NCBI GenBank assembly: GCA_934133195.1
Contig: CAKPAZ010000004.1
Coordinates: forward strand, 3,564 to 67,563
Source of the DNA: an uncultured Bacilli bacterium
GTDB taxonomy: Bacteria > Bacillota_I > Bacilli_A > ML615J-28 > CAG-313
Length of the DNA stretch: 64,000 nt
Reading direction: 5' to 3'
In this document: one piece after another, positions 17,166 to 37,127 of the stretch
How positions within the stretch are numbered: the stretch's first letter is position 1
Layout of the letters: each line of letters begins with the position of its first letter
Made by a program: the position numbers and the translations under genes
Notes under the pieces: generated by a model
What the model was told of the DNA's origin: nothing
What the model saw: only the letters and a program-made list of their open reading frames with translations
Databases searched by the model: none

Positions 17166-18426
17166 AGATGAATTCTTGAATAGTATTAAAACATCTAACT
17201 CTTCGTTATTTTGTATAGTTGGCCCTAATTATTCTGGAAAAACATATTTATTAAAAAATTTTTTTGAAAACTATATCACAATTGGTGGATTACTTATAGA
17301 TGAAACAGGTAAAGTAAGAAGAAAAGTTGCTACTGACGAAATTTTTATTTCAAGTGACAATAATTATTATATTTATCAGGATAAAAAGCAAAGAGGTAAA
17401 GATCATACTGCTAATGGCTCAAAAGTTGCACTTGATGAAGCATCAAAGGAAATAATAAAGGTTGTAAAAAAATACAAAGATAGAATTATCAATTTTTTAC
17501 AAAATGGAAAGCCTGAATCTCTTGGGATATCAAAAATAATGAATATAATAAATATTTTATTATCAACTAACTTAAACAATATATCCTATGTTATTATTGA
17601 TGAACCTGAAAATTCATTAGATGATAATAATCTTAAAATAGTGATAGAATTTATAAACACATTAATTTTATTCAAAAAGAAAGTAGTAATTGTTACTCAT
17701 AGTCCAAGATTACTTGAGCTAATGAAAGTAGAAGTTGATAATATATATAAAGTTAATGATCTAATGGGAAAAATACAAAATTTAAAGTTTACAGATGTTG
17801 AAAAGATCTATATTGATTGTGGTAGTGAATTAAAAGAAGTACCTGGCTATAAAAGCCTTTATATTTCTGATATAATTCAATTCAACGCTGGCGAAATTTT
17901 TCGTAATTTATATATTAATTACGTTCTAAAATCACAAGATTTTTATAGGGTATTATTCTACAATGATGTAGTATTAATGGAAGGCAAAACTGAAGAATTT
18001 ATTATTAGAGAGACAAAATATTCAAAAAAATACTCAAAAAATGTGTATTATATGGAGGGAAAATATAAAGCTTATTTTTTAATTGAGTTGTTTAGTAATT
18101 ATTGTAATCAAGTTAATTGTTTTATGGATAGGGATAAAAAAAGCAAACTAGATGATAATAATAATTTTTCTTATCAAATGAATGATACTTTTAAAAGAAA
18201 ATACAATAATAATTTAAAAGTCAAAATTTTTTACTTCAATAATAATATTGAAGATGAACTTGGTGTTGACATAAATGAGGTAATGATAGATTTTGTGGGT
18301 GAAGAAAATAAAAATAATAAACGATGCAAAAAAAATTTAAAACCATTTATTTCATTGAGGTACTTACAAAAACATCCAGAATGCATCGAAAATCTTGATT
18401 CACTAACAAATGAATTTAATTTTTAA
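17143..18426 (+). CDS. Compact OLD-family protein: ABC-type ATPase fused to a TOPRIM nuclease
   Basis: Walker A GPNYSGKT, signature-like SLGISKIM, Walker B YVIIDEPENSLDD and H-loop VTHSP. C-terminal TOPRIM VVLMEGKTEE ... FMDRDKK (E plus DxD). Confidence 0.6.
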   Translation: MLKMQITRDEFLNSIKTSNSSLFCIVGPNYSGKTYLLKNFFENYITIGGLLIDETGKVRRKVATDEIFISSDNNYYIYQDKKQRGKDHTANGSKVALDEASKEIIKVVKKYKDRIINFLQNGKPESLGISKIMNIINILLSTNLNNISYVIIDEPENSLDDNNLKIVIEFINTLILFKKKVVIVTHSPRLLELMKVEVDNIYKVNDLMGKIQNLKFTDVEKIYIDCGSELKEVPGYKSLYISDIIQFNAGEIFRNLYINYVLKSQDFYRVLFYNDVVLMEGKTEEFIIRETKYSKKYSKNVYYMEGKYKAYFLIELFSNYCNQVNCFMDRDKKSKLDDNNNFSYQMNDTFKRKYNNNLKVKIFYFNNNIEDELGVDINEVMIDFVGEENKNNKRCKKNLKPFISLRYLQKHPECIENLDSLTNEFNF

Positions 18427-18571
18427 ATTAATTTGTAATTTTAAATGCAACAAAATTAAGGTTAATTAGTTAAATAATCTTCATAATGATTCTTAAACTC
18501 TAAAGCCTAAATGATTTTAAAGATTGTGGTTCTATGAAATATTTTGACCCCCAACAAATTTATATAATCAT

Positions 18572-18884
18572 TAATAATATAAAATATTTTGCTCTCTATT
18601 TTTCTTATTAGAATTTATAATTTTAAATCTAAAAAAATCAAAATCGGAATATCCAAATCCGATTTTTTTTATTGTTTTACAAAAATTATTCTTACCTTCG
18701 ATAGAACCGTTAGATAATCTTTTATGTGTTACTGGATCCATGATAAAAGAGTTTGTAATTTCATTAATCCATGATTTATAAGTTAATGTAGTCTTTTTAA
18801 ATTCAATTTTAATTAAAACAAGATTTTTGCCTTGAATATTTAGTAAAATTATATAAAGAATTAGATAATTAATATAGAGTTACG
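18572..18884 (-). pseudogene. C-terminal remnant of an ISL3-family transposase
   Basis: The minus-strand translation ...PVTHKRLSNGSIEGKNNFCKTIKKIGFGYSDFDFFRFKIIN matches the conserved ISL3 C-terminus (NGxIEGxNNKIKxxKRxxYGYRNFxxFRxRIL). There is no start codon or N-terminal part. Confidence 0.5.
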
Positions 18885-19189
18885 CGTTATTACTTACCAT
18901 AACTCTTTTTTTACCATAAAAGCACAAAAGCATAAAATATTTTATAGAACCATTAAACCTCATAAGTAAATAAGGTGATTCATTAAGGCTTTTTTAATAC
19001 ATCCGATAACTCATTTTATAGTGTAATTTTCCAAATATTGTAAAATTTGAAATATTAATTATTATGGCATAAGATAATTTGTTAAAAATAGCAAAATCTT
19101 GCAATAATTTATGTATTATGATAAAATTTTATATGAACATATCAAAAAATATATTCACTTTAAAAAATTTTATTATAGGAGCGAGAAAA

Positions 19190-20083
19190 ATGACAATAAA
19201 ATTTGAATCTTTTTTTAAATTTGAACATCCAGAAAAAATTAAAGTTAAATTTAATATGACATCTGGTCGTGGTGGTGATAGAGCGTGGGACAATTTACGA
19301 GATGATGATGGAAATTATCAACGTAATGATAATAAGTGGTATAATATGAATGCTCATAGAAGTGAAACAGGACAATCAAACAACAATCTTGAACATTATG
19401 AATATGTTTTATCCTTTGCACAATATTATCCATATGGCCATGAATTTTATATATTTGGTGGATTATATAAAAAAACGGGTATTAGAAGTAATGACAAATA
19501 TGAATTAGAGTTACAAGATGACTATATAGAATATAGAAACAGATTAATTATTAAGTTAGAAAAATCAATTGGAAGAAATCTTTATTTAGTAAAGTTTAAA
19601 ACTGTGTGTAACAAAATGAATGCTGTCATTTATGAGATCAGACCAGAAGGAAAACTTTCAGTTTTTCCAGGATATAATAATGTTAGATTAACGCATAAAG
19701 AACTACAAAGTATTATCAATGGTAAGGAGATGGAATGGAAAAATGCATTGTCAGTGGTAAAAGGCGTTTACTGTATAACTGATACTTCAACAGGAAAAAT
19801 CTACATAGGCTCAGCTTATGGTAATACCAATGGTATATGGCAACGATGGTCATCATATGCTAATATTAAAAATCTCACAGGTGGTAATAAATATTTTGAA
19901 TTACTAAAAAAAGAATGTGAATCATACATTATTGACAACTTTCAATATTCAATTTTAGAAATCATGGATTTTAAGACGGATAAGAATGAAATTATTCGAA
20001 GAGAAGAGTATTGGAAAAAAGTATTCAAAAGCGTAGAATATGGAATGAATGAAGCTAGAAAAAATGTTGATGAATATTTATAA
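19190..20083 (+). CDS. GIY-YIG nuclease-domain protein with an unknown N-terminal domain
   Basis: The likely start is ATG 19190, with an RBS aggagcgag. The C-terminus has GVYCITDTSTGKIYIGSAYG...WQRWSSY...NKYFELL...E...EEYW, the GIY-YIG motifs. Confidence 0.6.
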   Translation: MTIKFESFFKFEHPEKIKVKFNMTSGRGGDRAWDNLRDDDGNYQRNDNKWYNMNAHRSETGQSNNNLEHYEYVLSFAQYYPYGHEFYIFGGLYKKTGIRSNDKYELELQDDYIEYRNRLIIKLEKSIGRNLYLVKFKTVCNKMNAVIYEIRPEGKLSVFPGYNNVRLTHKELQSIINGKEMEWKNALSVVKGVYCITDTSTGKIYIGSAYGNTNGIWQRWSSYANIKNLTGGNKYFELLKKECESYIIDNFQYSILEIMDFKTDKNEIIRREEYWKKVFKSVEYGMNEARKNVDEYL

Positions 20084-20111
20084 TTATTAAAATATAAATA
20101 CTAATTATTCA

Positions 20112-20146
20112 AAAGACCTTCACAGGAAAGGCCTTTTATTTTTAAA
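20112..20146 (+). terminator. Probable terminator
   Basis: aaagaccttcacaggaaaggcctttt followed by ATTTTT. Confidence 0.4.
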
Positions 20147-20316
20147 TATTTGTAATATTTTTTAAAATAAAAACATTCGTTATATAAAAAATAAATAAAA
20201 GTATTAAAAGAAAATTGAAATTAACATAATATTAGATAGATATAATTTGAATTTTTTAAAATTATATGATAAAATCATATCATAAAAATAAAATGTATAA
20301 ATGAGGATTGAGAATT

Positions 20317-21336
20317 ATGAATGAAAAAATTATGAAAGCACTAGAAGCATGTAATAAAGTTTTAGAGGGCTTGGAAAATGAAACTCTTTCTATTTCATCT
20401 GCTTTAATGTTATGCTTGAAAATTGCTAGACTTACAAATGATGAAAATAATTTAAGTTGGTTAATGTATGAAAGTAGCGGTTATGCTAAAATTGATAATG
20501 ATAATCTTTTGCCAGAAGCTTTTGAAATCGCAAAAAAGCATGGAAGAAATTATATAATAGATGACAAAGAGTATGTGTTTACTGAATTAGTTCCAGAACT
20601 AGAATCAAAGATTGAATGTGCAAAAATGCAAACTAATAACTTTACAACTAATGGTGCATCTACCTCTGGTAATTATGCTATGGGAGCGATGCACAGATTA
20701 ACTGAATCTGTTGCTTCGGAAAATAAAAAATTGTTAACTATAATGACTAGTTCGAGAAAAAAATTAATGATATTAGCAAGCCAATTTTATGATTATGCAC
20801 TAAAAAAATCTATTGAAATAACATTTGGGAACGTTTCGCAAACGATTTTTGAATCTTATAGAGAAACTGTTAATGGATACTTAAATGATGTTTCAAAAGA
20901 TACACTAATGAAATTGCAAGCAATTGATGAAGGATTGCAAACTAACAATAAAGAAACGTATTCACAAATTTTAACTACATGCAGAAGATTATTTCAAGAA
21001 TTGGTAAAAAATTTATTCAAAAGAGTTTTGCCTGAGTTCCAAGACGATCAGTTTAAAACTAAAAGTGGTAAATTCATAGATGTAAGTGGTGAACACTACA
21101 AAAATAAACTTTCAGCAATAATTGAGACTTTGGAAGACAAAACATTAAATAAATCACTTGTTGGTACTAGCATATTATATTACATGGACTGGATTGATAA
21201 CTTAACTTCACTTCAATCCAAAGGAGTACATAATGATATTTCTCTAGAAGAAGCAAGAAGTTGTATTATTCAAACTTACATTTTTGCTGGTGAAATCATT
21301 AAGTTATATGAAAACAATTTTAAAAATATTGATTGA
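20317..21336 (+). CDS. Hypothetical protein (340 aa)
   Basis: ATG 20317 with gagg 10 nt upstream. The ORF track used TTG 20308. No motif recognised. Confidence 0.5.
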   Translation: MNEKIMKALEACNKVLEGLENETLSISSALMLCLKIARLTNDENNLSWLMYESSGYAKIDNDNLLPEAFEIAKKHGRNYIIDDKEYVFTELVPELESKIECAKMQTNNFTTNGASTSGNYAMGAMHRLTESVASENKKLLTIMTSSRKKLMILASQFYDYALKKSIEITFGNVSQTIFESYRETVNGYLNDVSKDTLMKLQAIDEGLQTNNKETYSQILTTCRRLFQELVKNLFKRVLPEFQDDQFKTKSGKFIDVSGEHYKNKLSAIIETLEDKTLNKSLVGTSILYYMDWIDNLTSLQSKGVHNDISLEEARSCIIQTYIFAGEIIKLYENNFKNID

Positions 21337-21396
21337 ATGATATATTGATTAAATAAATATTGTTTTTTATAAATTTATTACAAATAGAGGAACTAT

Positions 21397-22599
21397 ATGG
21401 ATAAACTTTTTAAATTTATTTTAGAGAACTATAACGATGGAAGCGAAAAAGTAGATAAAACTACTGAATTATATAATATTTTAATTAAAAAACTTCCAAA
21501 TAAAATAGAATATACCTTGGGCATAACAGATCTTATTGTTAAAGGATCCATGGGACAAGGAAATAAAACCCAATATCCTTGGATTGCTATAATGGATAAG
21601 AGTATTACTCAATCAACACAATATGGCTTGTACATGGTATACTTATTTAAAAGAGATATGAGCGGATTCTATTTATCTCTTAATCAAGGTATTACTTTTT
21701 TTGAAAAAGAATACGGCAAACAAAGATATACTAATGCAGCTCTTGTTGCAGATTATTTTAGAAGTCAAATTGGAGAAACATCTTTTTCAAAAAATGAAAT
21801 TGACATAACATGTGGTGATAAATCCAAGTCTTTAGGATATGGATATCAGAAAACTAATATTATTTCTAAATATTATCCCATTGATAAATTAGATGAGCAG
21901 ATGTTAGTTAAAGACTTATTTGAACTATTTCATATTTATGATGAAATACTTCAACATATTAGTACCACATCATACGATAGCATTATTAAGGACATATTGA
22001 TAGAAGAAGAAAAGTCTTTTGTAGATGTAGATACCGCAGTGTATGAAATAAAAAAAGTATTAGATCAATATGATAATTTACCTGCAGGGTTACATAGAAC
22101 ATTAATAGAAGAAGAACCAACAGTTAAGCTATCAAAGAAATATGAAAGAATTACAAAGCCAAAAACAACTAAGATTGATTATATAAATAAAGCCAGAAAA
22201 GATGCAGAAGTTGGACTTTTGGGTGAAGAATTAGTTATTAGTTATGAAAAACAAAGATTAATAGATCTAAATTTAAATGATTACGCTGAAAAAATTAAAT
22301 GGATATCTAAAGAATCTGATTTGTATGGATATGATATTGAATCATTCGATATGGATGAAAATGGTAATATTTTTTCTATTAAGATAGAAGTAAAAACAAC
22401 TGCTTCTAGAGCAGATACTGAATTTTTTGTTTCCAAAAATGAACTTGAAGTATCGAAAGAATATCAAAAAAAATACTTTATATATAGAGTATATGATGCT
22501 AAAGGATTAATGCCTAAGTTTTATAGAGTTGCAGGATGTATATCAGATAATTTTATTTTAGATCCTGTTACCTTTATGGCAAGGTATAAATATAGATAA
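21397..22599 (+). CDS. Putative modification-dependent (type IV-like) restriction enzyme: MrcB-N-like DNA-binding domain plus C-terminal PD-(D/E)xK (DUF3883-like) nuclease
   Basis: N-terminal LIVKGSMGQGNKTQYPWIAIMD resembles the MrcB_N (DUF3578) core. C-terminal YDIESFD...IKIEVKTT...FFVSKNELE...YFIYRV fits D...(D/E)xK. Confidence 0.45.
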   Translation: MDKLFKFILENYNDGSEKVDKTTELYNILIKKLPNKIEYTLGITDLIVKGSMGQGNKTQYPWIAIMDKSITQSTQYGLYMVYLFKRDMSGFYLSLNQGITFFEKEYGKQRYTNAALVADYFRSQIGETSFSKNEIDITCGDKSKSLGYGYQKTNIISKYYPIDKLDEQMLVKDLFELFHIYDEILQHISTTSYDSIIKDILIEEEKSFVDVDTAVYEIKKVLDQYDNLPAGLHRTLIEEEPTVKLSKKYERITKPKTTKIDYINKARKDAEVGLLGEELVISYEKQRLIDLNLNDYAEKIKWISKESDLYGYDIESFDMDENGNIFSIKIEVKTTASRADTEFFVSKNELEVSKEYQKKYFIYRVYDAKGLMPKFYRVAGCISDNFILDPVTFMARYKYR

Positions 22600-22865: not shown

Positions 22866-25178
22866 ATGACAGAAGAAGAAGTAAAACTAAATTATATAAC
22901 ACCCGCGATTGAACATGCAGGATGGAAAAAAAGCCAAATTAGAATGGAATATTCAATAAATGATGGGAAAATAATTATTAGAGAAAATGTCACAAAAAGG
23001 TTGCCAAAGAAAAAAGCTGATTATGTTTTATTCTATAAAACAGATTTACCACTAGCAATAGTAGAAGCAAAAGATGATAAACATGTAGTTGGTGATGGAA
23101 TGTTACAAGCTCAAGAGTATGCAAAAAAATTAGATGTTAGATTTGTTTTTACATCTAATGGTAATGGATTTTTATTTTATGATATGAAAACTGGAGAACA
23201 AAAGATATATAACTTAGATGATTTTCCTTCCCCTGAAACTTTGTATAAAATTCAGTTTGAAGAAGAGTTTAAAAAGAATAAAAATTTAGAAAAAATCATT
23301 GATACACCATATTATTATGGAGTTGAATCACTTACACCCAGATATTATCAGCGTATTGCAATAAATAGAACTGTTGAGGCAATTGCAAAAGGTAGCGAGA
23401 GAATTTTACTTGTTATGGCTACTGGGACAGGAAAAACATACATGGCTTTTCAGATTATTTGGAGGCTTTGGAAATCTGGCCTTAAAAAGAAAATTTTATA
23501 TCTTGCAGATAGAAATATTTTAATAGATCAGACAATAATCGGTGATTTTAAACCATTTAAAAATTTTATGACTAAAATTTTTCATAAAAAGATGGATACA
23601 TCATATGAAATATATTTGTCACTTTACCAACAACTTTCTGAAAATGAGACGGATGATACATTAGCTTTATTAAAAGAAAATTTTAATTCGGATTTTTTTG
23701 ATTTAATAATAGTCGATGAATGTCATAGAGGTAGTGCTAGAGAAGACTCAAATTGGAGAAAAATATTAGATTATTTTGATAAAGCAAGTAAAATCGGTAT
23801 GACAGCAACCCCTAAAGAAACTAGAGAAATATCAAATATTGATTATTTTGGTGAACCAATTTATACATACTCTTTAAAAGATGGTATTGAAGATGGATTT
23901 CTTGCCCCTTATAGGGTAATCAGATACGCCCTAGATACTGATATATATGGGTATAGACCTGAAAAAGGTAAACTTGATATTGATGGAAATATTGTTGATG
24001 ATAGAGAGTATAATATAAATGATTTTGATAAAAATCTTATAATTGACGAAAGAACTCAATTAGTTGCCAAAAAAATTACGGAATTTCTTAAAAGCACCGA
24101 TCGATTTGCAAAAACAATTGTATTTTGCGTGGATGTAGACCATGCTGAAAGAATGAGACAAGCACTAGTTGAACTTAATTCAGATCTTTGTGCTGAAGAT
24201 CATAGATATATAGTTCGTATCACTGGTGATAATGAAGAAGGAAAAAAACAACTTGATTATTTTATTGATAATGATAGTATTTATCCAACTATAGTTACAA
24301 CCAGTAAATTATTAACGACTGGAGTAAATTGCCAAACATGTAAAATTATTGTTTTAGATAACATATTTGGTGAAAATGGAATGACGGAATTTAAACAAAT
24401 TATTGGTAGAGGTACAAGAATCAAAGAAGATTATGGTAAATTATATTTTACAATTTTAGACTTTAGAAATGCTACAAGATTATTTGCTGATCCAACTTTT
24501 AATGGTCCAGAAGAACAAGTAGAAGATTATGATCCAAATAGATTAAAAAAAATTAAAAATAAAAATATAATAGAATCTGATGAAGAAGAAAATAATGAGA
24601 TAAATAATAATACAAATGTAAAAAAAATTAGAGTTAACAATGTTGATGTAATGCTTATTGCAGAAAGAGTTCAATATTATGATTGTGATGGTAAACTAAT
24701 AACAGAAAACTTAAAAGATTACACGAGAAAAAATATTTTACACGATTATGCATCTTTGAGTGATTTCTTAAATTTATGGAATAGTGAAAAAAAGCGAGAA
24801 GTCATTATAGAAGAACTTAATACTAAAGGTATTTTTATAGAAGAACTTAGAAAATTTTATCCGACTGATGTAGATGATTTCGATTTAATATGTGATATAG
24901 CATATGGATTAAAACCACTGACAAGAAAAGATAGAATTAAACGTTCTAAGGTTGTAGATATATTAAATAGATATTCTGAGGAATGCAAAAAAGTTCTTGA
25001 GATTATTCTTGAAAAATATTCAAATGATGAAATTGATGAATTAACGGATTCAAAAATTTTAAAATTACCTGACTTTAACGATTATGGTAATCCCATGAAA
25101 ATTGCAAATTTATTTGGAGGGCGTAATAATTATTTAAATGCAGTTCGTCAAATACAAAATGCACTATATGTAGCGTAA
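22866..25178 (+). CDS. hsdR: Type I restriction enzyme R subunit
   Basis: HsdR_N start MTEEEVKLNYITPAIEHAGW, Walker A MATGTGKT, DEAH box IVDECHRGSA, and a helicase C-terminal domain. Confidence 0.9.
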   Translation: MTEEEVKLNYITPAIEHAGWKKSQIRMEYSINDGKIIIRENVTKRLPKKKADYVLFYKTDLPLAIVEAKDDKHVVGDGMLQAQEYAKKLDVRFVFTSNGNGFLFYDMKTGEQKIYNLDDFPSPETLYKIQFEEEFKKNKNLEKIIDTPYYYGVESLTPRYYQRIAINRTVEAIAKGSERILLVMATGTGKTYMAFQIIWRLWKSGLKKKILYLADRNILIDQTIIGDFKPFKNFMTKIFHKKMDTSYEIYLSLYQQLSENETDDTLALLKENFNSDFFDLIIVDECHRGSAREDSNWRKILDYFDKASKIGMTATPKETREISNIDYFGEPIYTYSLKDGIEDGFLAPYRVIRYALDTDIYGYRPEKGKLDIDGNIVDDREYNINDFDKNLIIDERTQLVAKKITEFLKSTDRFAKTIVFCVDVDHAERMRQALVELNSDLCAEDHRYIVRITGDNEEGKKQLDYFIDNDSIYPTIVTTSKLLTTGVNCQTCKIIVLDNIFGENGMTEFKQIIGRGTRIKEDYGKLYFTILDFRNATRLFADPTFNGPEEQVEDYDPNRLKKIKNKNIIESDEEENNEINNNTNVKKIRVNNVDVMLIAERVQYYDCDGKLITENLKDYTRKNILHDYASLSDFLNLWNSEKKREVIIEELNTKGIFIEELRKFYPTDVDDFDLICDIAYGLKPLTRKDRIKRSKVVDILNRYSEECKKVLEIILEKYSNDEIDELTDSKILKLPDFNDYGNPMKIANLFGGRNNYLNAVRQIQNALYVA

Positions 25179-25193
25179 AGGAGGATTAAAATT

Positions 25194-26663
25194 ATGGCAG
25201 TTACAAATTTAGTAAAAAGAATACAAGATATTATGAGAAATGACGCTGGCGTTGATGGTGATGCACAACGAATTAGTCAAATGACGTGGATGTTTTTCTT
25301 AAAAGTTTATGATGCTAAGGAAGAAGAATGGGAATTTTATGATGAAAATTATCAAAGTTTAATTCCTAATGAGCTAAAATGGAGAAATTGGGCAATAGAT
25401 GACCATAGTAATAATGTAATTACCGGTGAAAAACTATTAGATTTAGTTAATAATAAACTATTTCCTACTTTAAAAAATCTTGAGATAACCCCAGAAACAC
25501 CGCTAAAGCAACGCATTGCAAAATATGTTTTCGAAGATGCACAAAATTATATGAAAGATGGTGTTTTACTTAGACAGGTAATTAATGTAATAAATGAAGT
25601 TGATTTTTCTGAATATAAAGAAAGACATGAATTTGGTGCAATTTATGAAACAATTTTAAAAAGCTTACAAAGTGCTGGAAATGCTGGTGAATTTTATACG
25701 CCGCGTGCTGTTACAGATTTTATGGTTCAGATGATAAAGCCAAAACTTGGTGAGTCTGTCGCAGATTTTGCATGTGGTACAGGTGGATTTTTAACTTCAA
25801 CTTTAAAATATCTTGAGCCACAAAAAAAATCTACAGAGGATGTTGACAAATATAACAACACAATTTATGGAATTGAAAAAAAGCCAATGCCTTATTTACT
25901 TTGTATAACAAATATGTTAATACATGATGTTGATGAACCTAAAATTTATCACATGAATTCCTTAGAAAAAAATGTAAGAGATTACAAAGAAGAAGATAAA
26001 TTTGATATTATTTTAATGAATCCACCTTACGGAGGATCAGAAAAAGAAGCTGTTAAGAATAATTTTCCTGCAGATTTAAGAAGTAGTGAAACAGCAGATT
26101 TATTCATGAATGTTATCATGTATCGTTTAAAGAAAAATGGTCGTTGTGCTGTAATTATTCCAGATGGCTTTCTATTTGGAGAAGATAACGCAAAAGTTGC
26201 TATTAAGAAGAAACTATTAAATGAATTTAATTTACACACAATCATAAGAATGCCACATAGTGTTTTTGCTCCGTATACTTCCATAACGACTAATATATTA
26301 TTTTTTGATAATACTAAATCAACTGATGAAACATGGATATATCGTATGGACATGCCTGAGGGATATAAAAATTTTTCAAAAAATAAACCTATAATGCTAG
26401 AACATTTTGCTCCTGCTATTGAATGGTGGAATAATAGAAAAGAATTAATAATTGACGAATTTCCTAAAGCAAAGAAATATACAAAAGAAGATATTATAAA
26501 ATTAAATTATAATTTAGATTTATGTGGTTATCCACATATTGAAGAAGAAATTTTAGAACCAAAAGATTTAATCCATCAATTTAAAGAGCGAAGAGATTCT
26601 TATAACGCGGAGATTGAGAGAACACTGGCAAAAATATTGGAGATTTTAGATGAAGACAATTAA
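25194..26663 (+). CDS. hsdM: Type I R-M N6-adenine DNA methyltransferase M subunit
   Basis: HsdM_N (RISQMTWMFFLKV), SAM-binding DFACGTGGFL, and catalytic NPPYGG. Confidence 0.9.
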   Translation: MAVTNLVKRIQDIMRNDAGVDGDAQRISQMTWMFFLKVYDAKEEEWEFYDENYQSLIPNELKWRNWAIDDHSNNVITGEKLLDLVNNKLFPTLKNLEITPETPLKQRIAKYVFEDAQNYMKDGVLLRQVINVINEVDFSEYKERHEFGAIYETILKSLQSAGNAGEFYTPRAVTDFMVQMIKPKLGESVADFACGTGGFLTSTLKYLEPQKKSTEDVDKYNNTIYGIEKKPMPYLLCITNMLIHDVDEPKIYHMNSLEKNVRDYKEEDKFDIILMNPPYGGSEKEAVKNNFPADLRSSETADLFMNVIMYRLKKNGRCAVIIPDGFLFGEDNAKVAIKKKLLNEFNLHTIIRMPHSVFAPYTSITTNILFFDNTKSTDETWIYRMDMPEGYKNFSKNKPIMLEHFAPAIEWWNNRKELIIDEFPKAKKYTKEDIIKLNYNLDLCGYPHIEEEILEPKDLIHQFKERRDSYNAEIERTLAKILEILDEDN

Positions 26664-28221
26664 AAATTTAACTGCAAATGAATTAAGAAAATCAATTCTT
26701 CAATTAGCTATTCAAGGGAAACTTGTAAAACAAGATCCAAATGATGAGCCGGCCAGTGAGCTTGTCAAAAAAATTTATGAAGAAAAAAAGAAATTAATTG
26801 AAGAAGGTAAAATAAAAAAAGACAAAACAGAATCAATTATTTTTAAAGGTGATGATAATTGTTATTATGAGAAGATAGGTAATAATGATCCTATAAAACT
26901 TGAGGATTTACCTTTTGATATTCCTGATAATTGGATGTGGATACGACTTAAGAATTCTTCAATATTAAATGGTGGTTATGCATTCAAAAGTGATAAATTT
27001 TCTAAAGAAGGAGTTAGAGTGATCCGTATATCTGATTTCAATGAAAATGGAATTCTTAATAAGGATATTAAACGCTATCCATATTCAATAGAATTAGAAC
27101 AATATAAAATTTTAGAGAAAGATATTTTATTATGTATGACTGGTGGTACAGTTGGAAAATCTGTATATATTAATTCACTTAATGAAGATTCATATATAAA
27201 TCAACGTGTTGCATTAATACGTATATTTAAAATATTATCTAAATATTTTTATGTATATTTAGTGTCACCGAATACTGCCGATATAATTAATAAAAATAAA
27301 AATAGTACAAATGATAATATCTCCATGAAATTAATTGAAGACTTTCTAATTCCACTACCACCATTAGAAGAACAACAACGTATTGTAGATAAGATTAATT
27401 CATTTGAACCATTATTAGAAAAATATGAAAAAATAGAAAAAGAATTATCAAAACTAGAAAAAGAGTTTCCTGAAAAACTTAAAAAATCCATTTTACAATA
27501 TGCTATTGAAGGGAAACTAGTTAAGCAAGATCCTAACGATGAACCTGCTTCAGTCTTACTTGAACGAATAAAACAAGAGAAAGAAAGACTAATTAAAGAA
27601 GGTAAAATTAAGCGTGACAAGTATGAATCATACATCTATCAAGGTGATGATAAAAATTATTATGAGAAGATCTGTAATACGGTTAATAATATTGAAATTC
27701 CATTTGAAATTCCAAACAAATGGATATGGATTAAATCACATCAGATAATGAAACCAGTTCAATACGGATATAATGGCCCAGGTTTATCAAACGGGAAATT
27801 TAAATTATTAAGAATAAGTGATATTCAAAATGGTAATGTCAATTGGAAAACACTACCATATTGCAATATTTCTGAACAACAAGTAAATATTTATCAGATT
27901 CAAAAAAATGATATTTATATTGCAAGAACTGGTGGAACAATAGGTAAATCATTTAGACTAGCTGTAGATATGCCTAATGTTGTTTTTGCGGGATATTTAA
28001 TTAGATTTTCTTTTATCGAACAAAGAATAAGTAAATATATTAATTTGTTTCTAAATACACCTTTATATTGGAATCAGGTTGCAGATAAATCTGCAGGTAC
28101 TGGTCAACCTAATATTAACGGTGTATCATTAAGTAACTTATTAGTTCCGATACCTTCTTATAATGAACAAGAACGTATTCTAAATAAAATCAATTATTTA
28201 TTTCAAAAAATAGATTGTTAA
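26650..28221 (+). CDS. hsdS: Type I R-M specificity subunit, the expressed copy
   Basis: Two TRDs separated by a conserved central coiled-coil region (LKKSILQYAIEGKLVKQDPNDEPASVLLERIKQEKERLIKEGKIK) that duplicates the N-terminal conserved region. It overlaps the hsdM stop. Confidence 0.85.
   Translation: MKTIKNLTANELRKSILQLAIQGKLVKQDPNDEPASELVKKIYEEKKKLIEEGKIKKDKTESIIFKGDDNCYYEKIGNNDPIKLEDLPFDIPDNWMWIRLKNSSILNGGYAFKSDKFSKEGVRVIRISDFNENGILNKDIKRYPYSIELEQYKILEKDILLCMTGGTVGKSVYINSLNEDSYINQRVALIRIFKILSKYFYVYLVSPNTADIINKNKNSTNDNISMKLIEDFLIPLPPLEEQQRIVDKINSFEPLLEKYEKIEKELSKLEKEFPEKLKKSILQYAIEGKLVKQDPNDEPASVLLERIKQEKERLIKEGKIKRDKYESYIYQGDDKNYYEKICNTVNNIEIPFEIPNKWIWIKSHQIMKPVQYGYNGPGLSNGKFKLLRISDIQNGNVNWKTLPYCNISEQQVNIYQIQKNDIYIARTGGTIGKSFRLAVDMPNVVFAGYLIRFSFIEQRISKYINLFLNTPLYWNQVADKSAGTGQPNINGVSLSNLLVPIPSYNEQERILNKINYLFQKIDC
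26860..26892. repeat. IR-A, left copy (33 nt perfect), in the 5' conserved region of hsdS
   Basis: tgttattatgagaagataggtaataatgatcct. Its exact reverse complement occurs at 31439..31471, with extended similarity to about 26960 and 31370. Confidence 0.8.
27541..27617. repeat. IR-B, left copy (77 nt perfect), in the central conserved region of hsdS
   Basis: gaacctgcttcagtcttacttgaacgaataaaacaagagaaagaaagactaattaaagaaggtaaaattaagcgtga. Its exact reverse complement occurs at 30699..30775, with about 90% identity over about 160 nt. Confidence 0.85.
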
Positions 28222-28794
28222 CCTTTTTAACAATTTTATGTTGTTCTGATAAAGGAGGAATTGGTATCGCATAGTTCATTATAACTTTAGGATATAATTC
28301 TATTTGATTTGTACTACCTTCATACCTTTCTTCAACATAATCAAAAATTATAGGTGATCTTAAATATAAGTATACATATTCTGGATTAATTTCTTTTTGA
28401 ATTAATCGAATTGTTGTTATATGTGAATCATAAACAATAATATTGTGATTGGAAAAAGACTTTATTTTAAGATATTAACTCTTCCAACAGTTCCTGTACC
28501 AGTTGAATTGATTATAATATCATTTATGTTAGAAATTTGCTGTGCATTATAACTAATAAATGATAATCCATCTATATATAAAGCTTTATTTAATGATAAT
28601 ATTCCGTCTTTTTGATTGCATTTTTGTGCAATTACGGGAATTGTTTTATTAACAGAATATTTAGGAGATTTTCCTCGCTTGATAAATTCTGAAATATTAA
28701 TTAATTTTGTGATTTTCCATCCAATTGGAATTGAATAATCTTTTAATTTAGATAGAAACATCTTATAATAATTTATATATAAAAAAGACTTCAA
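28190..28794 (-). pseudogene. Silent, disrupted hsdS cassette (alternative TRD) convergent on the hsdS 3' end
   Basis: The minus-strand translation gives a TRD (…GKSPKYSVNKT…STGTGTVGRVNILK), an in-frame stop near 28462, then in another frame …EINPEYVYLYLRSPII…IPIPPLSEQHKIVKK. The 3' end overlaps the hsdS 3' end. There is no start or promoter. Confidence 0.5.
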
Positions 28795-28822
28795 TGAATT
28801 TAAGTGTTCATTGAAGTCTTTT
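28782..28822. terminator. Hairpin terminator downstream of the recombinase gene
   Basis: aaaagacttcaatgaa-ttta-agtgttcattgaagtcttttt. Confidence 0.5.
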
Positions 28823-28825
28823 TGA

Positions 28826-29629
28826 TTACCAAGTTACTATTTCATCAACTAATTTTTGTTGTTCACTTGCAGTTTTTCTAAGATATATTCGTGTTGTTTC
28901 AATAGATTCATGTCCCATTAAATCTGCTAATAAAGATATATCATTATATTTCTCTAAAAAATTCTTTGCAAATCTATGTCTAAACGAATGGGGATATACA
29001 ACTTTAGGATCTATACCATATTTAATTGCATAGTTCTTTAATTGTTGAGAAATTCCTCTAGTTGTAATTCTTTCTCCAAATCTATTAAGAAAGATATATC
29101 CAGATTCAATCTCTAAATCATTTTCTATCCATTTAATTGTTTCTTTTCTTAAAGCAAGTGGAATATAAATTCTTCTAACCTTTCCACCTTTAGAATAGAT
29201 ATCTATATAACCAACTTTTACATGTTCAACTTTTATTTTAATTAATTCGCTAATTCTAGCACCAGTTGCACATAAGAATCTAACTATGAAATACCATTCG
29301 ATATTAGGTTCTTTTTTTAATTTTTTCTTAAAAAAAACGTAATCAGCATCACTAATTACGTTTTCAAGGAACATTTTTTGTTGCACCTTTATAGATTTGA
29401 GCCTTAAATTATCTTTTCCGATAAATTCCAAATACTTATTCATAGCTTGAATTTTAAGATTAACAGATTTAGCCTTAAAATTTTCTATTAAATAAGTTTT
29501 CCATAGAAGTAAATATTTCTTATTTACTTCATCAAATAATTCTTTGTATCCCTGTATAGCAATTAAATAAGCGGATACTGTGTTCTTAGCAAGATTTTTT
29601 GCTAATAAAAACTGTTTAAATTTTTCCAT
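28826..29629 (-). CDS. Tyrosine site-specific recombinase (XerC/D-like), probably the shufflon invertase
   Basis: ATGARISE (Arg), HSFRHRFA (HxxR), and GHESIETTRIYL (catalytic Tyr). Embedded between hsdS cassettes. Confidence 0.85.
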   Translation of the reverse strand: MEKFKQFLLAKNLAKNTVSAYLIAIQGYKELFDEVNKKYLLLWKTYLIENFKAKSVNLKIQAMNKYLEFIGKDNLRLKSIKVQQKMFLENVISDADYVFFKKKLKKEPNIEWYFIVRFLCATGARISELIKIKVEHVKVGYIDIYSKGGKVRRIYIPLALRKETIKWIENDLEIESGYIFLNRFGERITTRGISQQLKNYAIKYGIDPKVVYPHSFRHRFAKNFLEKYNDISLLADLMGHESIETTRIYLRKTASEQQKLVDEIVTW

Positions 29630-29696
29630 TAATTTTACCTCCTTATGGACGATAAAATTATATCATTTAATTATTAATTTTCTTTTTATGAACACA

Positions 29697-30195
29697 ATAT
29701 AAAAATTATTATGAGAATTTACCAATCGGCTGGGTCAAATGTTGTTTATCAAATGTAGCTAAAATTATTATGGGACAATCTCCTAATGGTAATACTTATG
29801 GTAATATTGGAACTGAATTCCATCAAGGTAAAATGTTTTTTACTGATAGAATAATTGGAATTTCTAATGTCAAAACTTCAACTCCAATCAAAGTCACCTC
29901 AAAATATTCGCTAGTTATGTCAGTTAGAGCTCCTGTTGGAGATGTAAATTATTGTAATAGAGAAATATGCATAGGTCGTGGATTGTGTTCAATTGAATGT
30001 TTTGTACCAGAACTAACTGATTATCTTTATATTATATTGAAAGCAAATAGTAAGTTTTTTAAGGATAAATCGACTGGGACAACATTTAAAGCGATAAATA
30101 TGGATGTTATAGCATCATTACCAATATTACTTCCTCCATTGAATGAACAAAAAAGTATAGCAAGTAAAATTAATAAAATAAATATGTATTTATAG
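29697..30195 (+). pseudogene. Silent hsdS fragment (alternative C-terminal TRD) in direct orientation
   Basis: It begins with aaaaattattatgaga (the DKNYYE junction repeat). It encodes a TRD ending LLPPLNEQKSIASKINKINMYL, resembling the hsdS C-terminus. It lacks an upstream conserved region and start context. Confidence 0.5.
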
Positions 30196-30698
30196 AATCT
30201 ATTCTCTCACATATTCTTTTCTGTTCTTCTATAGGTGGTAAAAAAATAATTCGAGCCAAAATTTCTTTTCTATCTATTCCGGGTATTAAACTCTTTGCAT
30301 TAGCATTAAGTGAGGAGACAATTGTATTAAGATAGAGTATTAGAAATGAATTTAAAATATATGACTTAATAGACATAAATTGTCTAGCAATATGAATATC
30401 TCCAATACTATTTATAGCTATTTTTCCTATAGTTCCTTTGCATGAAAGCAATATTTCGTTTTTTCGTGAGTTTACATGTTTACAACTTGTATATCTATTT
30501 ATTATTATTTTGTTGTTTTCATCAATATTACTTGCACCAGTAATATATGGAATACCTATATTTTTATTCGAGTAATCATTTTGACTTAAATCTGTTCCTG
30601 ACGTTAGCGTAATTATTTGATGCATATAACACCTAATCCACCCCATATTCTCATAATAATTTTTATCATCACCTTGATAGATGTATGATTCATGCTTC

Positions 30699-30775
30699 TC
30701 ACGCTTAATTTTACCTTCTTTAATTAGTCTTTCTTTCTCTTGTTTTATTCGTTCAAGTAAGACTGAAGCAGGTTC
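30699..30775. repeat. IR-B, right (inverted) copy
   Basis: Exact reverse complement of 27541..27617. Confidence 0.85.
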
Positions 30776-31438
30776 GTCATTAGGATCTTGTTTTACTAAT
30801 TTTCCTTCAATTGCGTATTGAAGAATAGATTTCTTTAGTTTATCTGGAAATTCTGATTCAAGAATAGATAATTTATTTTCAATATTATCATAATGTTGAA
30901 TTAAAGGTTCAAACAAATTAATTTTTTTGACAATTCTTTTTTGTTCATTTAGTGGTGGAAGTGGAAATAAATAATCTCCAACTGTAGATAGACTTAAGAA
31001 AATTTGATTTGTTGTTCCGTTTGCTGATTTCTCTATATTAGTTCGATTCAAAAATAAAAATTTATATAACATAACTGAAGTAATTTCGTCAAATAAACGA
31101 AATACAAACAAATGTCCATCGGTTAAAACATCTGTTCTGTCTAATTGATATAAACCGCATCTACCCAATGTCCCATGACCTAAGGTATTTAATAAAACAT
31201 CATATTTTCTTAAATAATAATATTCTGGCATATTTATCACAAATTCATCAGTGCAATATTTAGCAAGTTTAAAATCTATTTCAATTCCACTATTTGCTGC
31301 TTGTCCAATAGCTATATTATTTGTAATCTCTTTTGAGTATTTTGGAGATTTTCCGCTATAAATCAATTTACATAAATTTTTTAACCTAATCCAAACCCAA
31401 TTATTTGGAATATCAAAAGGTAAATCTTCTAACTTTAC

Positions 31439-31471
31439 AGGATCATTATTACCTATCTTCTCATAATAACA
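31439..31471. repeat. IR-A, right (inverted) copy
   Basis: Exact reverse complement of 26860..26892. Confidence 0.8.
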
Positions 31472-31663
31472 ATTATAAAATCATATAGAAATGAAGGTAT
31501 ATAATCTAATATGTTAAAAATTAAATCTAATTAAAACGTATAAAATTAAAATAATATACATATACTATTATATACAATTTTTTTAAGCGTAACAAAATGT
31601 TACGATTTCAAGTTTTTTTCTTGACTTAAACAGTAAATTTTGATATAATGAGGTGAAAAAATA

Positions 31664-33043
31664 ATGAAAAGGGAAAAAATTATGAAAAATTTAATAATTA
31701 AATTAGAAAGCATTAGAATGGTTAATTTTAAAAATATTGCTAAGAGTGAAATATCTTTTTCAGATAAAGGCAAAATATTAAATACTATAGGTATATATGG
31801 ACAAAATGGGAGTGGCAAGACATCTGTTGTTGAATCTATAAATATTTTAAAATCGTTATTAATGGACATACCATTTCAAAAAGATTTATATTATTATATT
31901 AATATAGGATCCAATGAGTTAGCATTAGATTATAAATTTATACTTATTAAAGAAAAAGAAAAATATACCGTTAAATATTCTGTAAAATTTGAAAAAAAAA
32001 TAAAAATTGATACTGAAAAAAATATTGATGAGAAAAAAACGGTTCTATCAAAGGAAAAAATCGAAATATTCGATACAACTGAAAATTTATTAGCATATAT
32101 AGAGTTTAAAAATGAGGAAAAAAAAATTTCATGTAATTATGCAGATCATAATTTTGAAAACTATGACGGTATTATAACAAAAGATATTGCTATTGCAACT
32201 TCGCATGTTTCCAAACAATTATCAAAAACAATGATTTTTCAGCAAATGTTTAGGGATAATATAAGAAAAAGTGTACTTTTAAAATCCGTTTTAAACGCAA
32301 TGCATTTTTATGCTACTACTAATTTGTTTGTGATAGGAATGAAGGAAACTAGTTTGATCTCTGCAATTGATAATTTACCATTAAATATTCGTACATCTGG
32401 TAATGAAGATTTGATTACCTCTGGAACTATACCTTTGAATTTATTTGGCCCATCTATTATCCCTGGCGTTATTTTGAATACTATTACGCCTGAACTTGAC
32501 CAAATCAATATAGTAATGGGGCAATTAATTCCTGGAATAAAAATTGGTTACAAAAAAATTAGTGAAGGATTAGACAAAAATGGTAATATAATAGTAACGA
32601 TTCAATTAGTTTCAATTATAGGAGATTTGCAAATTCCTTTAAAGTACGAATCAGAAGGTGTAAAAAAATTAATAGCCCTATGTAGTGTTTTAATTGGAAT
32701 GTACAATAATGAGTCTGTATGTCTAGTAGTTGATGAATTAGATTCTGGAATTTTTGAATATTTGTTAGGTGAACTAGTTAAAATTATCCATGAAGATGCT
32801 AAGGGACAGTTAATCTTTACATCACATAATTTGAGATTACTTGAAGTTTTACCTAAGCAGTGCATCATATTCTCTACCACTAATCCAAAAAAACGATTTA
32901 TTAAAATGGCTAATGTAAAACCAAACCATAATTTAAGAGATTTTTATTATAGAACTATTCTTTTAGGAGGACAAAAAGAAGAATTATATGATGAAACAGA
33001 CGAATTAGAAATAGAAAGAGCATTAAGGAAATGTCAAATTTAA
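31664..33043 (+). CDS. AbiLi/RloA-like AAA ATPase (AAA_21/ABC-type)
   Basis: Walker A GIYGQNGSGKTS, Walker B LVVDELDSGI, and H-loop FTSHN. RBS gaggtg. 13-nt overlap with the next gene. Confidence 0.7.
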   Translation: MKREKIMKNLIIKLESIRMVNFKNIAKSEISFSDKGKILNTIGIYGQNGSGKTSVVESINILKSLLMDIPFQKDLYYYINIGSNELALDYKFILIKEKEKYTVKYSVKFEKKIKIDTEKNIDEKKTVLSKEKIEIFDTTENLLAYIEFKNEEKKISCNYADHNFENYDGIITKDIAIATSHVSKQLSKTMIFQQMFRDNIRKSVLLKSVLNAMHFYATTNLFVIGMKETSLISAIDNLPLNIRTSGNEDLITSGTIPLNLFGPSIIPGVILNTITPELDQINIVMGQLIPGIKIGYKKISEGLDKNGNIIVTIQLVSIIGDLQIPLKYESEGVKKLIALCSVLIGMYNNESVCLVVDELDSGIFEYLLGELVKIIHEDAKGQLIFTSHNLRLLEVLPKQCIIFSTTNPKKRFIKMANVKPNHNLRDFYYRTILLGGQKEELYDETDELEIERALRKCQI

Positions 33044-33759
33044 ATAGGAAAAGTTTAATTCTGTTTATAGTTGAAGGCAAAAGTGATAAAGTATATTTAT
33101 CTCCTATCAAAAAAATGGTAGAGCGTCGATCCAATAGTAAAATTAAATTTAAGGTTATGTATGGTGATATATTAACAAATTTCGATACTGATCCTAATTA
33201 TATTGAAAACGAAGTTGCAATGGTAATACAAGAATATTTGGAATTGTTTGGACTTGAACTTGAAGACATTAAACAAGTTGTTCATATAGTTGACTTAGAT
33301 GGTTGTTTTGTTAATTCAAAAAAAATTATAAATGATAAATCTTTAGAAAAAGGTCATACAATTTATTATAGAGATAAAATTGCAAATTTTAATAGACAAA
33401 ATATTATAAAAAGAAATCAAAAAAAGGTTAGTTGTTTAGAAGTTTTACATAAATTAAATAAAATTAATTATGGAACTAAGGGAATGATTCCATACAGGAT
33501 ATATTATTTTTCAACAAACATAGATGATTATTTTTTTAACAATCAAAACTGCTCTAATGAGCAAAAAATAAATAATTCCGACTTAATACATGATAAATAT
33601 ATTGACAATCCTGAAGAATATAGACATATGATTGAAAGTAATTCTTGCGTGCCTGGCTCCTATGATGAAACATGGGAGTATATAAAAATAGAAAATAATT
33701 CATTAAGTAGATGCACAAATTTTAACAAATTTTTTATTGAGATTATTGATAAAATTTAA
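33031..33759 (+). CDS. AbiLii/RloB-like protein (OLD-type TOPRIM-like)
   Basis: N-terminal LILFIVEGKSDKVYL matches the RloB-family motif (iIvcEGekTEpnYf). About 240 aa. Coupled to the upstream ATPase. Confidence 0.6.
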   Translation: MSNLNRKSLILFIVEGKSDKVYLSPIKKMVERRSNSKIKFKVMYGDILTNFDTDPNYIENEVAMVIQEYLELFGLELEDIKQVVHIVDLDGCFVNSKKIINDKSLEKGHTIYYRDKIANFNRQNIIKRNQKKVSCLEVLHKLNKINYGTKGMIPYRIYYFSTNIDDYFFNNQNCSNEQKINNSDLIHDKYIDNPEEYRHMIESNSCVPGSYDETWEYIKIENNSLSRCTNFNKFFIEIIDKI

Positions 33760-34586: not shown

Positions 34587-35204
34587 ATGAAAAAAGGAAA
34601 CACCAAACAAGAAATACTACTAGCAGCCCTTGATTTGTTTTCTGTAAAAGGATATGAAGGAACATCAATTTCCGAAATTGCTCAGAAAGTTGGAATTAAG
34701 AAAGCTACCATGTATAGTCATTTTACAAGCAAACAAGAAATCTTAGATGAACTTGTTAGAACAGTATTTGAAGAGTATAACAAACACACTATCTTTAAGA
34801 ATACTAATTTTGAAAAGATGTTTGTTCTAGATTCAACTGATGTAATTGATGTGAATATTGTTATTGAAAAAGTCTTAAAGCATGTAAGCTACATTATACA
34901 TAGTAGTGTGATTAGTAAATCACGTAAAATGCTTTTGATTGAACAGTTTCAAAATGAAACTTTAAGTGAACTACAAACTAAACAAAACTATACTGATGTT
35001 TTGAATTATTTTACCTCACTTTTTGAGTATTTAATATCTAAAGATAAACTTAAAGATTATGACCCTGAAATCATGGCCGCAAGTTTTGCTTTTCCAATTT
35101 CGGTGTGGATTAACTTAGTTGATAGATGCCCAGAAAAAGAAGAGGAAGTAAAATCATTAATAACTCGTCATATTACTCAATTTTTCAAGGTATATTCAAA
35201 ATAA
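34587..35204 (+). CDS. TetR/AcrR family transcriptional regulator
   Basis: N-terminal HTH QEILLAALDLFSVKGYEGTSISEIAQKVGIKKATMYSHF. Confidence 0.8.
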   Translation: MKKGNTKQEILLAALDLFSVKGYEGTSISEIAQKVGIKKATMYSHFTSKQEILDELVRTVFEEYNKHTIFKNTNFEKMFVLDSTDVIDVNIVIEKVLKHVSYIIHSSVISKSRKMLLIEQFQNETLSELQTKQNYTDVLNYFTSLFEYLISKDKLKDYDPEIMAASFAFPISVWINLVDRCPEKEEEVKSLITRHITQFFKVYSK

Positions 35205-35216
35205 GGAATAAACTAA

Positions 35217-35855
35217 ATGGAAAATAATAAATTATTTGAAAGAGTTAAAATTATCATTGTCTTAATTATAAGTCTAATCTTAATGGCAGTCCTTGTTAGT
35301 TTTGTGATTTACCTTTTATCACAGACTCCTCCTAAATCAAGGGATTTAATCAATAATAATGAATTAGAATCATATCTTATTGAAAAGAACAATAACTATT
35401 TTGATTATCAAGAAAATAACGATTGTGCATCTTTCGCAACTTCTTACCTTCTTAGACATTTTGGTGAAAATCTTCAAGCAAGTGATATAAGAAAGAAGAT
35501 CAAAAGAACCTTTGGTTATGTTTTTCCTTCAGCTATCACTAATTTCTTTAAGGAAAAAGGTTATGAGGCAACTTCCTACTCTGGTAATCTTCATACCTTA
35601 AAGCATGAACTAACTAAAGGAAATCCAGTAATTGTTTTAATCAACATTGAAAATGACACCCACTACGCGGTGGTAGTAGGATATGATCAAAAAAGCATCT
35701 ACTTAGTTGATTCTCTAAAAGAAAATGTTAATGTTGATAATCCTAACTATAACCGGATGCTAACGGAAGAAGAATTTAAGGAAGTTTGGGATACCAACAT
35801 GCTTTTATCAAGTAATATTTATATCGTTATTAAAGATAGAAAGGAACAAAAATAA
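35217..35855 (+). CDS. Membrane-anchored papain-like cysteine peptidase domain protein (Peptidase_C39_2-like)
   Basis: N-terminal TM anchor. NDCASFATSYLL (Cys) ... GNPVIVLINIENDTHYAVVVGYD (His). Confidence 0.5.
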   Translation: MENNKLFERVKIIIVLIISLILMAVLVSFVIYLLSQTPPKSRDLINNNELESYLIEKNNNYFDYQENNDCASFATSYLLRHFGENLQASDIRKKIKRTFGYVFPSAITNFFKEKGYEATSYSGNLHTLKHELTKGNPVIVLINIENDTHYAVVVGYDQKSIYLVDSLKENVNVDNPNYNRMLTEEEFKEVWDTNMLLSSNIYIVIKDRKEQK

Positions 35856-36424
35856 TGAAATCATTAGAAAAAATTCAAAAAATATTTAAGGCTATTTTAA
35901 AAATTGTTGAAGTCTTTACCATCTTATCAATAATAGGAGCTGCGATTTATGGACTTTTCGCATTCATTGCTTTAAGTGAACAATATGGTGGAAAAGTATT
36001 TTCCATCTTTGGTGAGGAAATTATCATCTTTAAAGATGAACCTAACCTCATCGTAAAGTTTAATGAATTAATGTCTTCATCACTTATCTTAATTGGTGAC
36101 ATCATTCTTTTAGTATTTGCTTCAAGATATTTAAAAACAGAACTAGAAGAAGGTACGCCATTTGGGGAAAATGGACCAGAAAAATTAAAAAAATTAGGAA
36201 TTCGCTGTATCTATATTCCAATTATTGCATTTACGATTGCTGAAATAATTGTGTTAATTACTTTAGGGGAAGATAATAATTTTATGATTGAAAGTTCATT
36301 TAGTGTAATTACTGGTATTGTCTTAATCATTGTTTCCTTTATTTTTAAATATGGAAAAGAACTAGAAACAAAAGTTAAAAAAGTAGAAACTCCTGATTCT
36401 ATAGATTCAAATGAGGAAAAATAA
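35855..36424 (+). CDS. Hypothetical polytopic membrane protein
   Basis: Four hydrophobic helices. The start overlaps the upstream stop (ATGA). Confidence 0.4.
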   Translation: MKSLEKIQKIFKAILKIVEVFTILSIIGAAIYGLFAFIALSEQYGGKVFSIFGEEIIIFKDEPNLIVKFNELMSSSLILIGDIILLVFASRYLKTELEEGTPFGENGPEKLKKLGIRCIYIPIIAFTIAEIIVLITLGEDNNFMIESSFSVITGIVLIIVSFIFKYGKELETKVKKVETPDSIDSNEEK

Positions 36425-37088: not shown

Positions 37089-37127
37089 AAAGTGTAAGTC
37101 CAATTGAAATGGGCTTACACTTTTTTT
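37089..37127 (+). terminator. Rho-independent terminator
   Basis: aaagtgtaagtcc-aattgaaat-gggcttacacttt followed by TTTTT. Confidence 0.6.

Follow-up and report, generated by a model that had tools for sequence, protein, structure and literature searches.

Type I restriction-modification (R-M) systems whose specificity gene, hsdS, is rearranged by DNA inversion are known and well surveyed. The SpnD39III/cod (ivr) locus of Streptococcus pneumoniae carries the tyrosine invertase PsrA/CreX (Manso 2014, PMC4190663; Li 2016, PMC4948785; PMC7096588). In this locus hsdR, hsdM and hsdSA are co-transcribed, hsdSB is a single 3' target recognition domain (TRD) and hsdSC carries the partners of two long repeats. 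Inversion by PsrA depends on an IR1-like core within the long repeats (PMC7096588), and the invertase lies within the inverton (PMC7672463). The same survey of "epigenetic invertons" (Huang et al. 2020, PMC7672463) lists putative invertons at 827 loci of REBASE and sorts 1140 invertases from NCBI into six clades, with more than 90% of the species host-associated. Duplicated inverted hsdS loci have likewise been surveyed in REBASE (Atack et al. 2020, PMC7394358). Here we analysed a stretch of 64,000 nucleotides (nt) from an uncultured gut Bacilli bacterium (hereafter the window; 29% GC, read in genetic code 11), which holds an R-M locus followed by a recombinase gene and further hsdS copies. 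By its protein families this locus is a type I R-M operon of the EcoAI family (type IB), and its hsdS very probably acts as a site-specific inversion switch, that is, an "epigenetic inverton" or hsdS shufflon. An earlier note on this DNA had interpreted the locus as a shufflon, and our sequence comparisons support that interpretation, since every element that it proposed is present and looks intact.

The hsd operon, the recombinase and the silent copies

Gene calls were backed by Pfam and NCBIfam profiles and, for the defence genes, also by PADLOC. The genes hsdR, hsdM and hsdS on the plus strand are followed by cassette c1 (-), the tyrosine recombinase gene (-), cassette c3 (+) and a silent copy, hsdS' (-) (Table 1). 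The Pfam and NCBIfam matches thus confirmed the earlier account of an hsdR, hsdM and hsdS series (+) trailed by a Xer-like recombinase (-) and silent hsdS pieces. HsdR scored 1076 bits against NCBIfam NF046051 (cutoff 550) and covered model positions 1-768 of 768. The end of hsdM overlaps the start of hsdS by 14 nt, and hsdS comprises, in order, an N-terminal conserved region (codons 1-69), TRD1, a central conserved region (CCR) and TRD2. Rfam and tRNA scans of the R-M locus returned no matches. Genetic code 4, a candidate at a Mollicutes-like 29% GC, was rejected; the open reading frames (ORFs) are nearly the same in table 4 and table 11.

The recombinase is Xer-like, yet it falls below every NCBIfam equivalog cutoff. 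Aligned with the XerA and XerD (1a0p) structures, it retains the full catalytic set R-K-H-R-H-Y (H-x-x-R). Most related loci that reach far enough have a homologue of 65-81% identity next to copies of hsdS, and close homologues span Firmicutes, Bacteroidetes, Melainabacteria and others.

A stop codon stands directly upstream of the region of hsdS' that is homologous to hsdS. The inverted, near-complete silent copy described in the earlier note is present, and it thus lacks codons 1-69 and not roughly 75 codons. Between the two copies, TRD1 and TRD1' share 37% amino-acid identity overall and are nearly identical over the first ~20 residues, whereas TRD2 gave no significant similarity to TRD2' or c3 in the comparison. 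The TRDs between the repeats had been called completely different, which does not hold for TRD1 against TRD1'.

The two partial cassettes differ in condition. Cassette c3 is an intact single TRD, whereas six-frame translation of c1 shows a -1 frameshift: a TAA at 28464-28462, adjoining an A4 run (28468-28465), ends the reading frame prematurely. Hidden Markov model (HMM) coverage of c1 comes in two fragments, positions 355-441 and 445-526; one added A restores a full TRD, and an intact homologue occurs in frame at the TRD2 position of the database protein P0019. From its sequence, c1 looks like a decayed relic that probably takes no part in switching. A cassette had been proposed at 28190-28794, and one is there, on the minus strand. 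As an active cassette c1 was rejected, on account of the frameshift and the degenerate site at its border.

Table 1 Features of the R-M locus and of its neighbourhood in the window (coordinates in nt).
Feature	Coordinates	Strand	Description
hsdR	22866..25178	+	770 amino acids; restriction subunit, EcoAI/FtnUII (type IB) family; Pfam ResIII, HSDR_N_2, EcoEI_R_C; PADLOC REase_I
hsdM	25194..26663	+	489 amino acids; N6-adenine methyltransferase subunit; Pfam HsdM_N and N6_Mtase (230 bits)
hsdS, putatively expressed	26650..28221	+	523 amino acids; Pfam Methylase_S in two stretches; HsdS family HMM positions 1-526 (full length)
IR-A left arm (site a)	26855..26892	+	38 nt, perfect; core TTATTATGAGAA at 26862-26873; TRD1 5' border
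Central inverted repeat, left arm (site b)	27541..27668	+	IR-B 27541-27617 and 46-nt block 27623-27668; core 27657-27668 at TRD2 5' border
Cassette c1	28794 to 28193	-	TRD2-position cassette, tail-to-tail with hsdS, between hsdS and recombinase
Degenerate site c	28752..28781	-	c1 5' border; AAATTATTATAAGATG, 2 mismatches in the 12-nt core
Tyrosine recombinase (putative invertase)	28826..29629	-	267 amino acids; inside the predicted invertible segment; Pfam Phage_integrase, 99 bits
Cassette c3	29692..30195	+	Intact single TRD, TRD2 position; tail-to-tail with hsdS'; Methylase_S 1.5e-16
Site d	29699-29718	+	c3 5' border; core at 29706-29717
hsdS' (TRD1'-CCR'-TRD2'), putatively silent	31476 to 30170	-	Without the N-terminal conserved region; HMM positions 70-524
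Central inverted repeat, right arm (site e)	30648..30775	-	46-nt block 30648-30693, core at 30648-30659; IR-B 30699-30775
IR-A right arm (site f)	31439..31476	-	38 nt, perfect; core at 31458-31469
tRNA-Lys	10170-10245		Start of the defence-type run
Upstream defence run	within 10170-22599		DUF4238, SatD/DUF3307, RiboL-PSP HEPN protein
AAA_21 ATPase	17143-18426		
ISL3 transposase fragment	about 18571-18741		
UzuA-like protein	19079-20083		
AbiTii-like protein	20308-21336		
MrcB_N+NOV_C protein	21397-22599		
AbiLi-like ATPase and 242-amino-acid partner	31664-33759		After the R-M locus; partner without family match

Inverted repeats and their shared core

Three perfect inverted repeats (IRs) link the hsdS pieces of the locus. 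IR-A, previously given as 33/33, is real and perfect, and its full length is 38/38; its outer (left) edge is the exact start of homology between the expressed hsdS and hsdS'. IR-B was borne out at 77/77, and beyond it, after mismatches at 27618 and 27622, a perfect 46-nt block extends the central repeat to 128 nt with 2 mismatches. The third repeat, of 20 nt, is absent from the earlier note and joins site d in c3 to the TRD2' border of hsdS' (30647-30666).

In the 61 codons of the CCR directly upstream of IR-B, 45 of 183 nt differ between the copies, with 22 synonymous and 14 non-synonymous codon changes, whereas the 42 codons of block 27541-27668 hold no synonymous and 2 non-synonymous changes. 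Since the 42 codons carry 0 synonymous changes against 22 in the adjacent 61, the repeats appear to have been kept identical as DNA. The probability of 77 consecutive matches at 78% identity is ~5e-9. Judged by these counts, the repeats are due neither to chance nor to constraint on the protein, and are homogenised at the DNA level.

Inverted copies and perfect repeats could in principle be produced by mis-assembly of a mixed metagenome. The window does come from a metagenome assembly (ENA ERZ27287428, a k141 contig), and inverted repeats trouble assemblers. None of the repeats in the window nevertheless reaches k=141, a separate Logan assembly made from another run matches the window at 100% identity over 27639-30677 and over the hsdM-hsdS junction, and the closest independent genomes show the same architecture, so we regard the chance of an assembly artefact as practically negligible.

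All three repeats contain the same 12-nt core, TTATTATGAGAA, which lies in IR-A, in the 46-nt block beside IR-B and in the 20-nt repeat. The core has five exact copies in the window, every one at the 5' border of a TRD: two in hsdS (starting at 26862 and 27657), one in c3 (29706) and two in hsdS' (30648 and 31458). It encodes YYE(K/N). Across 82 related loci of Bacilli, Clostridia and Bacteroidales, YYE(K/N) has 155 codon-degenerate matches, and 122 of them are the exact string TATTATGAGAA; because a single string makes up so large a share, conservation of the core appears to be in the DNA and not in the peptide alone. A literature search with the core sequence returned unrelated primer matches only.

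Two further observations concern the position of the core. The N-terminal conserved region of hsdS (26681-26884) is a direct repeat of the distal half of the CCR (27476-27679), 75-78% identical at a spacing of 795 nt, which accounts for the same core standing at both the TRD1 and the TRD2 border. In a third lineage (contig L089), positions 82-1029 match window 28768-29714, the recombinase gene being 97% identical as DNA. The homology ends at the positions of site c and site d, with unrelated sequence beyond, so that core sites bound the recombinase unit.

Predicted products and arrangements in related loci

In the proposed switch, only the hsdS that is fused to hsdM and carries the N-terminal conserved region would be expressed, and the recombinase encoded in the locus would pair inverted copies of the core at the 5' border of every TRD. 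Inversion between sites a and f (a x f) would flip 26893-31438, so that the silent copy's entire TRD1-CCR-TRD2 body takes the place of the expressed one. A central inversion (IR-B, or b x e) would swap TRD2 for TRD2' only, and exchange of TRD1 alone would require both the IR-A and the central inversion. Inversion between d and e (d x e) would first place c3 in the silent copy; a later central or a x f inversion could then bring it into the expressed gene. With two TRD1s and three TRD2s the output would be six in-frame HsdS proteins, giving six predicted methylation and restriction specificities, each presumably with a target motif of its own.

These inversions were simulated on the window sequence. 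The a x f product is 503 amino acids long and in frame, the product of the central inversion 498, and that of the double inversion (TRD1'+TRD2) 528; the c3-bearing products, of 498 and 503 amino acids, are also in frame. All six variants are thus open and full length, at 498-528 amino acids. The earlier note had predicted that IR-A and IR-B would swap TRD1 and TRD2 independently, which the simulation bears out for TRD2 at IR-B but not for IR-A, where the whole body is exchanged. Its estimate of at least four specificities, and more with the partial cassettes, agrees with the six predicted variants, and the cassette that it placed at 29697-30195 is the intact c3 (29692-30195), which can enter through the 20-nt IR.

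Related lineages carry different arrangements with breakpoints at these same sites. In a sister lineage, whose HsdS is 89% and recombinase 96.6% identical to those of the window, contigs L084 and L083 from different samples are 99.7-99.9% identical, with the segment between the central IRs inverted. In a more distant lineage, with a recombinase 80.5% identical to that of the window, a stretch of 1834 nt is 100% identical between contigs L087 and L088, and the identity begins precisely at ATAATTGCTATTATGAGAAG. In L088 this shared hsdS body is preceded by hsdM and the N-terminal conserved region, in L087 by an unrelated flank with stop codons. A second junction of this pair, which flips the recombinase segment, lies within AAATTATTATGAGAACTT, a repeat of 18 nt and hence much smaller than the k of either assembly (141 and 119). 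The two junctions both fall within ...TTATTATGAGAA....

Across species, the recombinase-bearing segment runs one way relative to the full-length hsdS in 6 of the related loci and the other way in 8, and the closest relatives repeat the order full hsdS, cassette, recombinase, cassette and hsdS lacking the N-terminal region (deltaN). In the protein database, P0016, P0019 and P0036 have near-identical backbones with different TRD2s, and identical HsdS bodies occur in full-length and deltaN forms. At the 18-nt repeat of the L087/L088 pair (L087 2225-2290; L088 3218-3283 and 4152-4217), inversion involves nothing but the recombinase segment, between core sites that belong to the two flanking cassettes. 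Such a flip alters no hsdS product, and the equivalent site in the window, site c, is degenerate.

It may be asked whether the recombinase is needed for such rearrangements, as switching could proceed mainly by general, recombinase-independent recombination over the long repeats (77/128 and 38 nt), with the recombinase dispensable or confined to the short sites. There is precedent in S. pneumoniae, where only inversion at the 15-bp IR1 is strictly PsrA-dependent and the 298-bp and 85-bp inversions persist without PsrA (PMC4948785); one study describes spnIII recombination as independent of all known site-specific recombinases (PMC6620402). In the present case d and e are joined by a repeat of no more than 20 nt, one L087/L088 breakpoint falls in an 18-nt repeat, and both breakpoints of that pair contain the conserved core. 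Because repeats of 18-20 nt are too short for efficient homologous recombination, and as the core is conserved as DNA across phyla together with the recombinase, we consider it improbable that inversion proceeds mainly in this way, and the recombinase remains the probable catalyst.

Several observations weigh against the inversion switch as a whole. Exact look-ups of the recombinase and hsdM returned the reference arrangement only. One set of three contigs carries both the expressed HsdS and the silent ORF, and the predicted a x f product, used as query, found no chimeric protein at 100% identity among 5.8 billion proteins. The inverted L083/L084 pair rests on a 321-nt repeat, probably longer than the short reads, so that a mis-join by the assembler is possible. 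Because c1 and site c have decayed, the switch is not being kept up in full. Finally, hsdS' is presumed to be silent, and a promoter-like site stands upstream of it at 31595 to 31567 (-). A promoter and terminator scan of 22.4-31.9 kb yielded 0 terminators and 65 promoter-like sites, where shuffles would give 73; since such matches are no commoner in this AT-rich DNA than in shuffles, the scan cannot decide whether hsdS' is silent. The proteins of the window's own lineage were found only in NCBI, ENA and Logan sources. The Logan contigs L002 and L086 end within the 46-nt and 38-nt repeats, as expected at k=31, and are uninformative on inversion.

Taken furthest, these points would make the locus a locked relic, that is, a former hsdS shufflon with no meaningful switching rate now, leaving a type I R-M system of fixed specificity with leftover copies. 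The single arrangement in all assemblies of the lineage and the frameshift and degenerate site of c1 would fit this. A consensus assembly, however, gives the majority isoform only, so that one arrangement per assembly is expected either way. The three IR pairs are perfect and free of synonymous drift next to codons that are 25% diverged, the recombinase has an intact ORF and lacks none of its catalytic residues, hsdS', c3 and the six recombinant products are all open, and close relatives show recent inversions. On this evidence a locked relic is unlikely, and an inversion switch that still operates is the reading that we favour.

The shared core might also permit recombination across positions, for example b x f, which would shift TRDs between positions 1 and 2 or make an HsdS with three TRDs, and the recombinase, sites and cassettes might together form one horizontally transferable plug-in module. 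The core together with a 65-81% identical recombinase was found across Bacilli, Clostridia, Bacteroidales, Melainabacteria and Cloacimonadota. We think this extension of the switch rather unlikely. If true, the specificity space would be larger and differently structured compared with the separate TRD1 and TRD2 pools of SpnD39III. Two HsdS homologues in the protein set, P0043 (791 amino acids) and P0088 (703 amino acids), carry a third TRD together with an additional conserved region. This is the form expected from core recombination between a TRD2 border and a TRD1 border, and both could be assembly chimeras.

Neighbourhood and comparison with known systems

The R-M locus stands within a run of defence-type genes that begins at a tRNA-Lys gene and continues past hsdS' (Table 1), in agreement with the defence-island setting suggested earlier. 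The shufflon of the sister lineage (L083, 1-17572) lies among other defence genes, encoding a UvrD-like helicase, GmrSD, DUF2971, SRA-HNH, NUDIX and SIR2_2 proteins; given these different neighbours, the R-M/shufflon unit moves between islands. The second cassette of L083 is of the TRD1-position type, whereas c3 of the window is of the TRD2-position type.

Outside the defence run, window 34587-39972 encodes a TetR regulator, a peptidase C39-like protein, a 189-amino-acid protein without a match, a GyrI-like/Cass2 protein, a MATE transporter and a radical SAM/SPASM enzyme, which may form a small peptide-modification or export cluster. At 6291-8660, between tRNA-Cys (6104-6177, -) and tRNA-Lys, lies the gene of a large aBig_2 (atrophied bacterial Ig) protein with a C-terminal peptidase C39-like domain.

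The locus leaves the understanding of how such systems work unchanged. What it adds is an apparently functional phase-variable type I R-M system, cleanly annotated, in an uncultured gut Bacilli lineage. Its exact predicted junctions and six HsdS variants are targets to seek in reads or methylomes. The core TTATTATGAGAA offers a practical marker for finding and phasing such switches in metagenomes, and could help to spot assembly breaks or "mis-assemblies" that are in fact inversion isoforms.

The hsd1 and hsd2 loci of Mycoplasma pulmonis offer a weaker comparison. As in the window, hsdS is rebuilt there by site-specific inversion at short sites within the coding sequence, and to this extent the analogy drawn in the earlier note holds. 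It is looser in that the recombinase HvsR is encoded elsewhere in the genome, outside the hsd loci, and acts on the vsa surface-antigen locus as well, which it inverts (PMC7672463), whereas the recombinase of the window lies within the locus and the core has no copies elsewhere in the 64 kb. The window is moreover read in genetic code 11, not 4. Bacteroides fragilis, also a gut bacterium, has several silent hsdS pieces that give up to eight specificities by inversion (Ben-Assa 2020, PMC7641763). Its invertase, BfiA, lies outside the invertons (PMC7672463), in contrast to the recombinase here, which is inside the invertible segment. In the Bacteroidales loci retrieved through recombinase homologues, all hsdS copies lie on one side of the recombinase.

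The likeness to SpnD39III is close, and the analogy proposed earlier proved apt in layout. Each locus has three IR classes that vary widely in size, 20, 38 and 77+46 nt in the window and 15, 85 and 298 bp in SpnD39III, and in both the sequence of the short repeat recurs within the long ones. The gene order is similar as far as the papers describe it, and hsdSA and the hsdS of the window are both ~1.57 kb long. The phyletic spread of the recombinase homologues and the gene layout suggest, by analogy, clade 1 of the invertases (PsrA/CreX; PMC7672463). The two loci differ in that the host here is an uncultured gut Bacilli metagenome-assembled genome, and in that the window has an additional usable cassette, c3, beyond the recombinase, while c1, the equivalent of hsdSB, is decayed. 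With c3 usable and c1 decayed, the 2x3 variants would be reached by a different path than in SpnD39III.

Neither the locus nor its organism was found in the surveys PMC7672463 and PMC7394358, as far as these can be checked. Measured against the definition of an epigenetic inverton in PMC7672463, the locus has at least two hsdS genes or fragments (hsdS, the deltaN hsdS', c3 and the fossil c1), an IR-flanked, invertible hsdS sequence inside coding regions and a co-located invertase homologue with complete active-site residues. Its predicted inversion products are in frame, and it comes from the gut, a host-associated source. The locus is in these respects a well-formed, ordinary example of the known and well-surveyed phase-variable type I R-M "epigenetic invertons".

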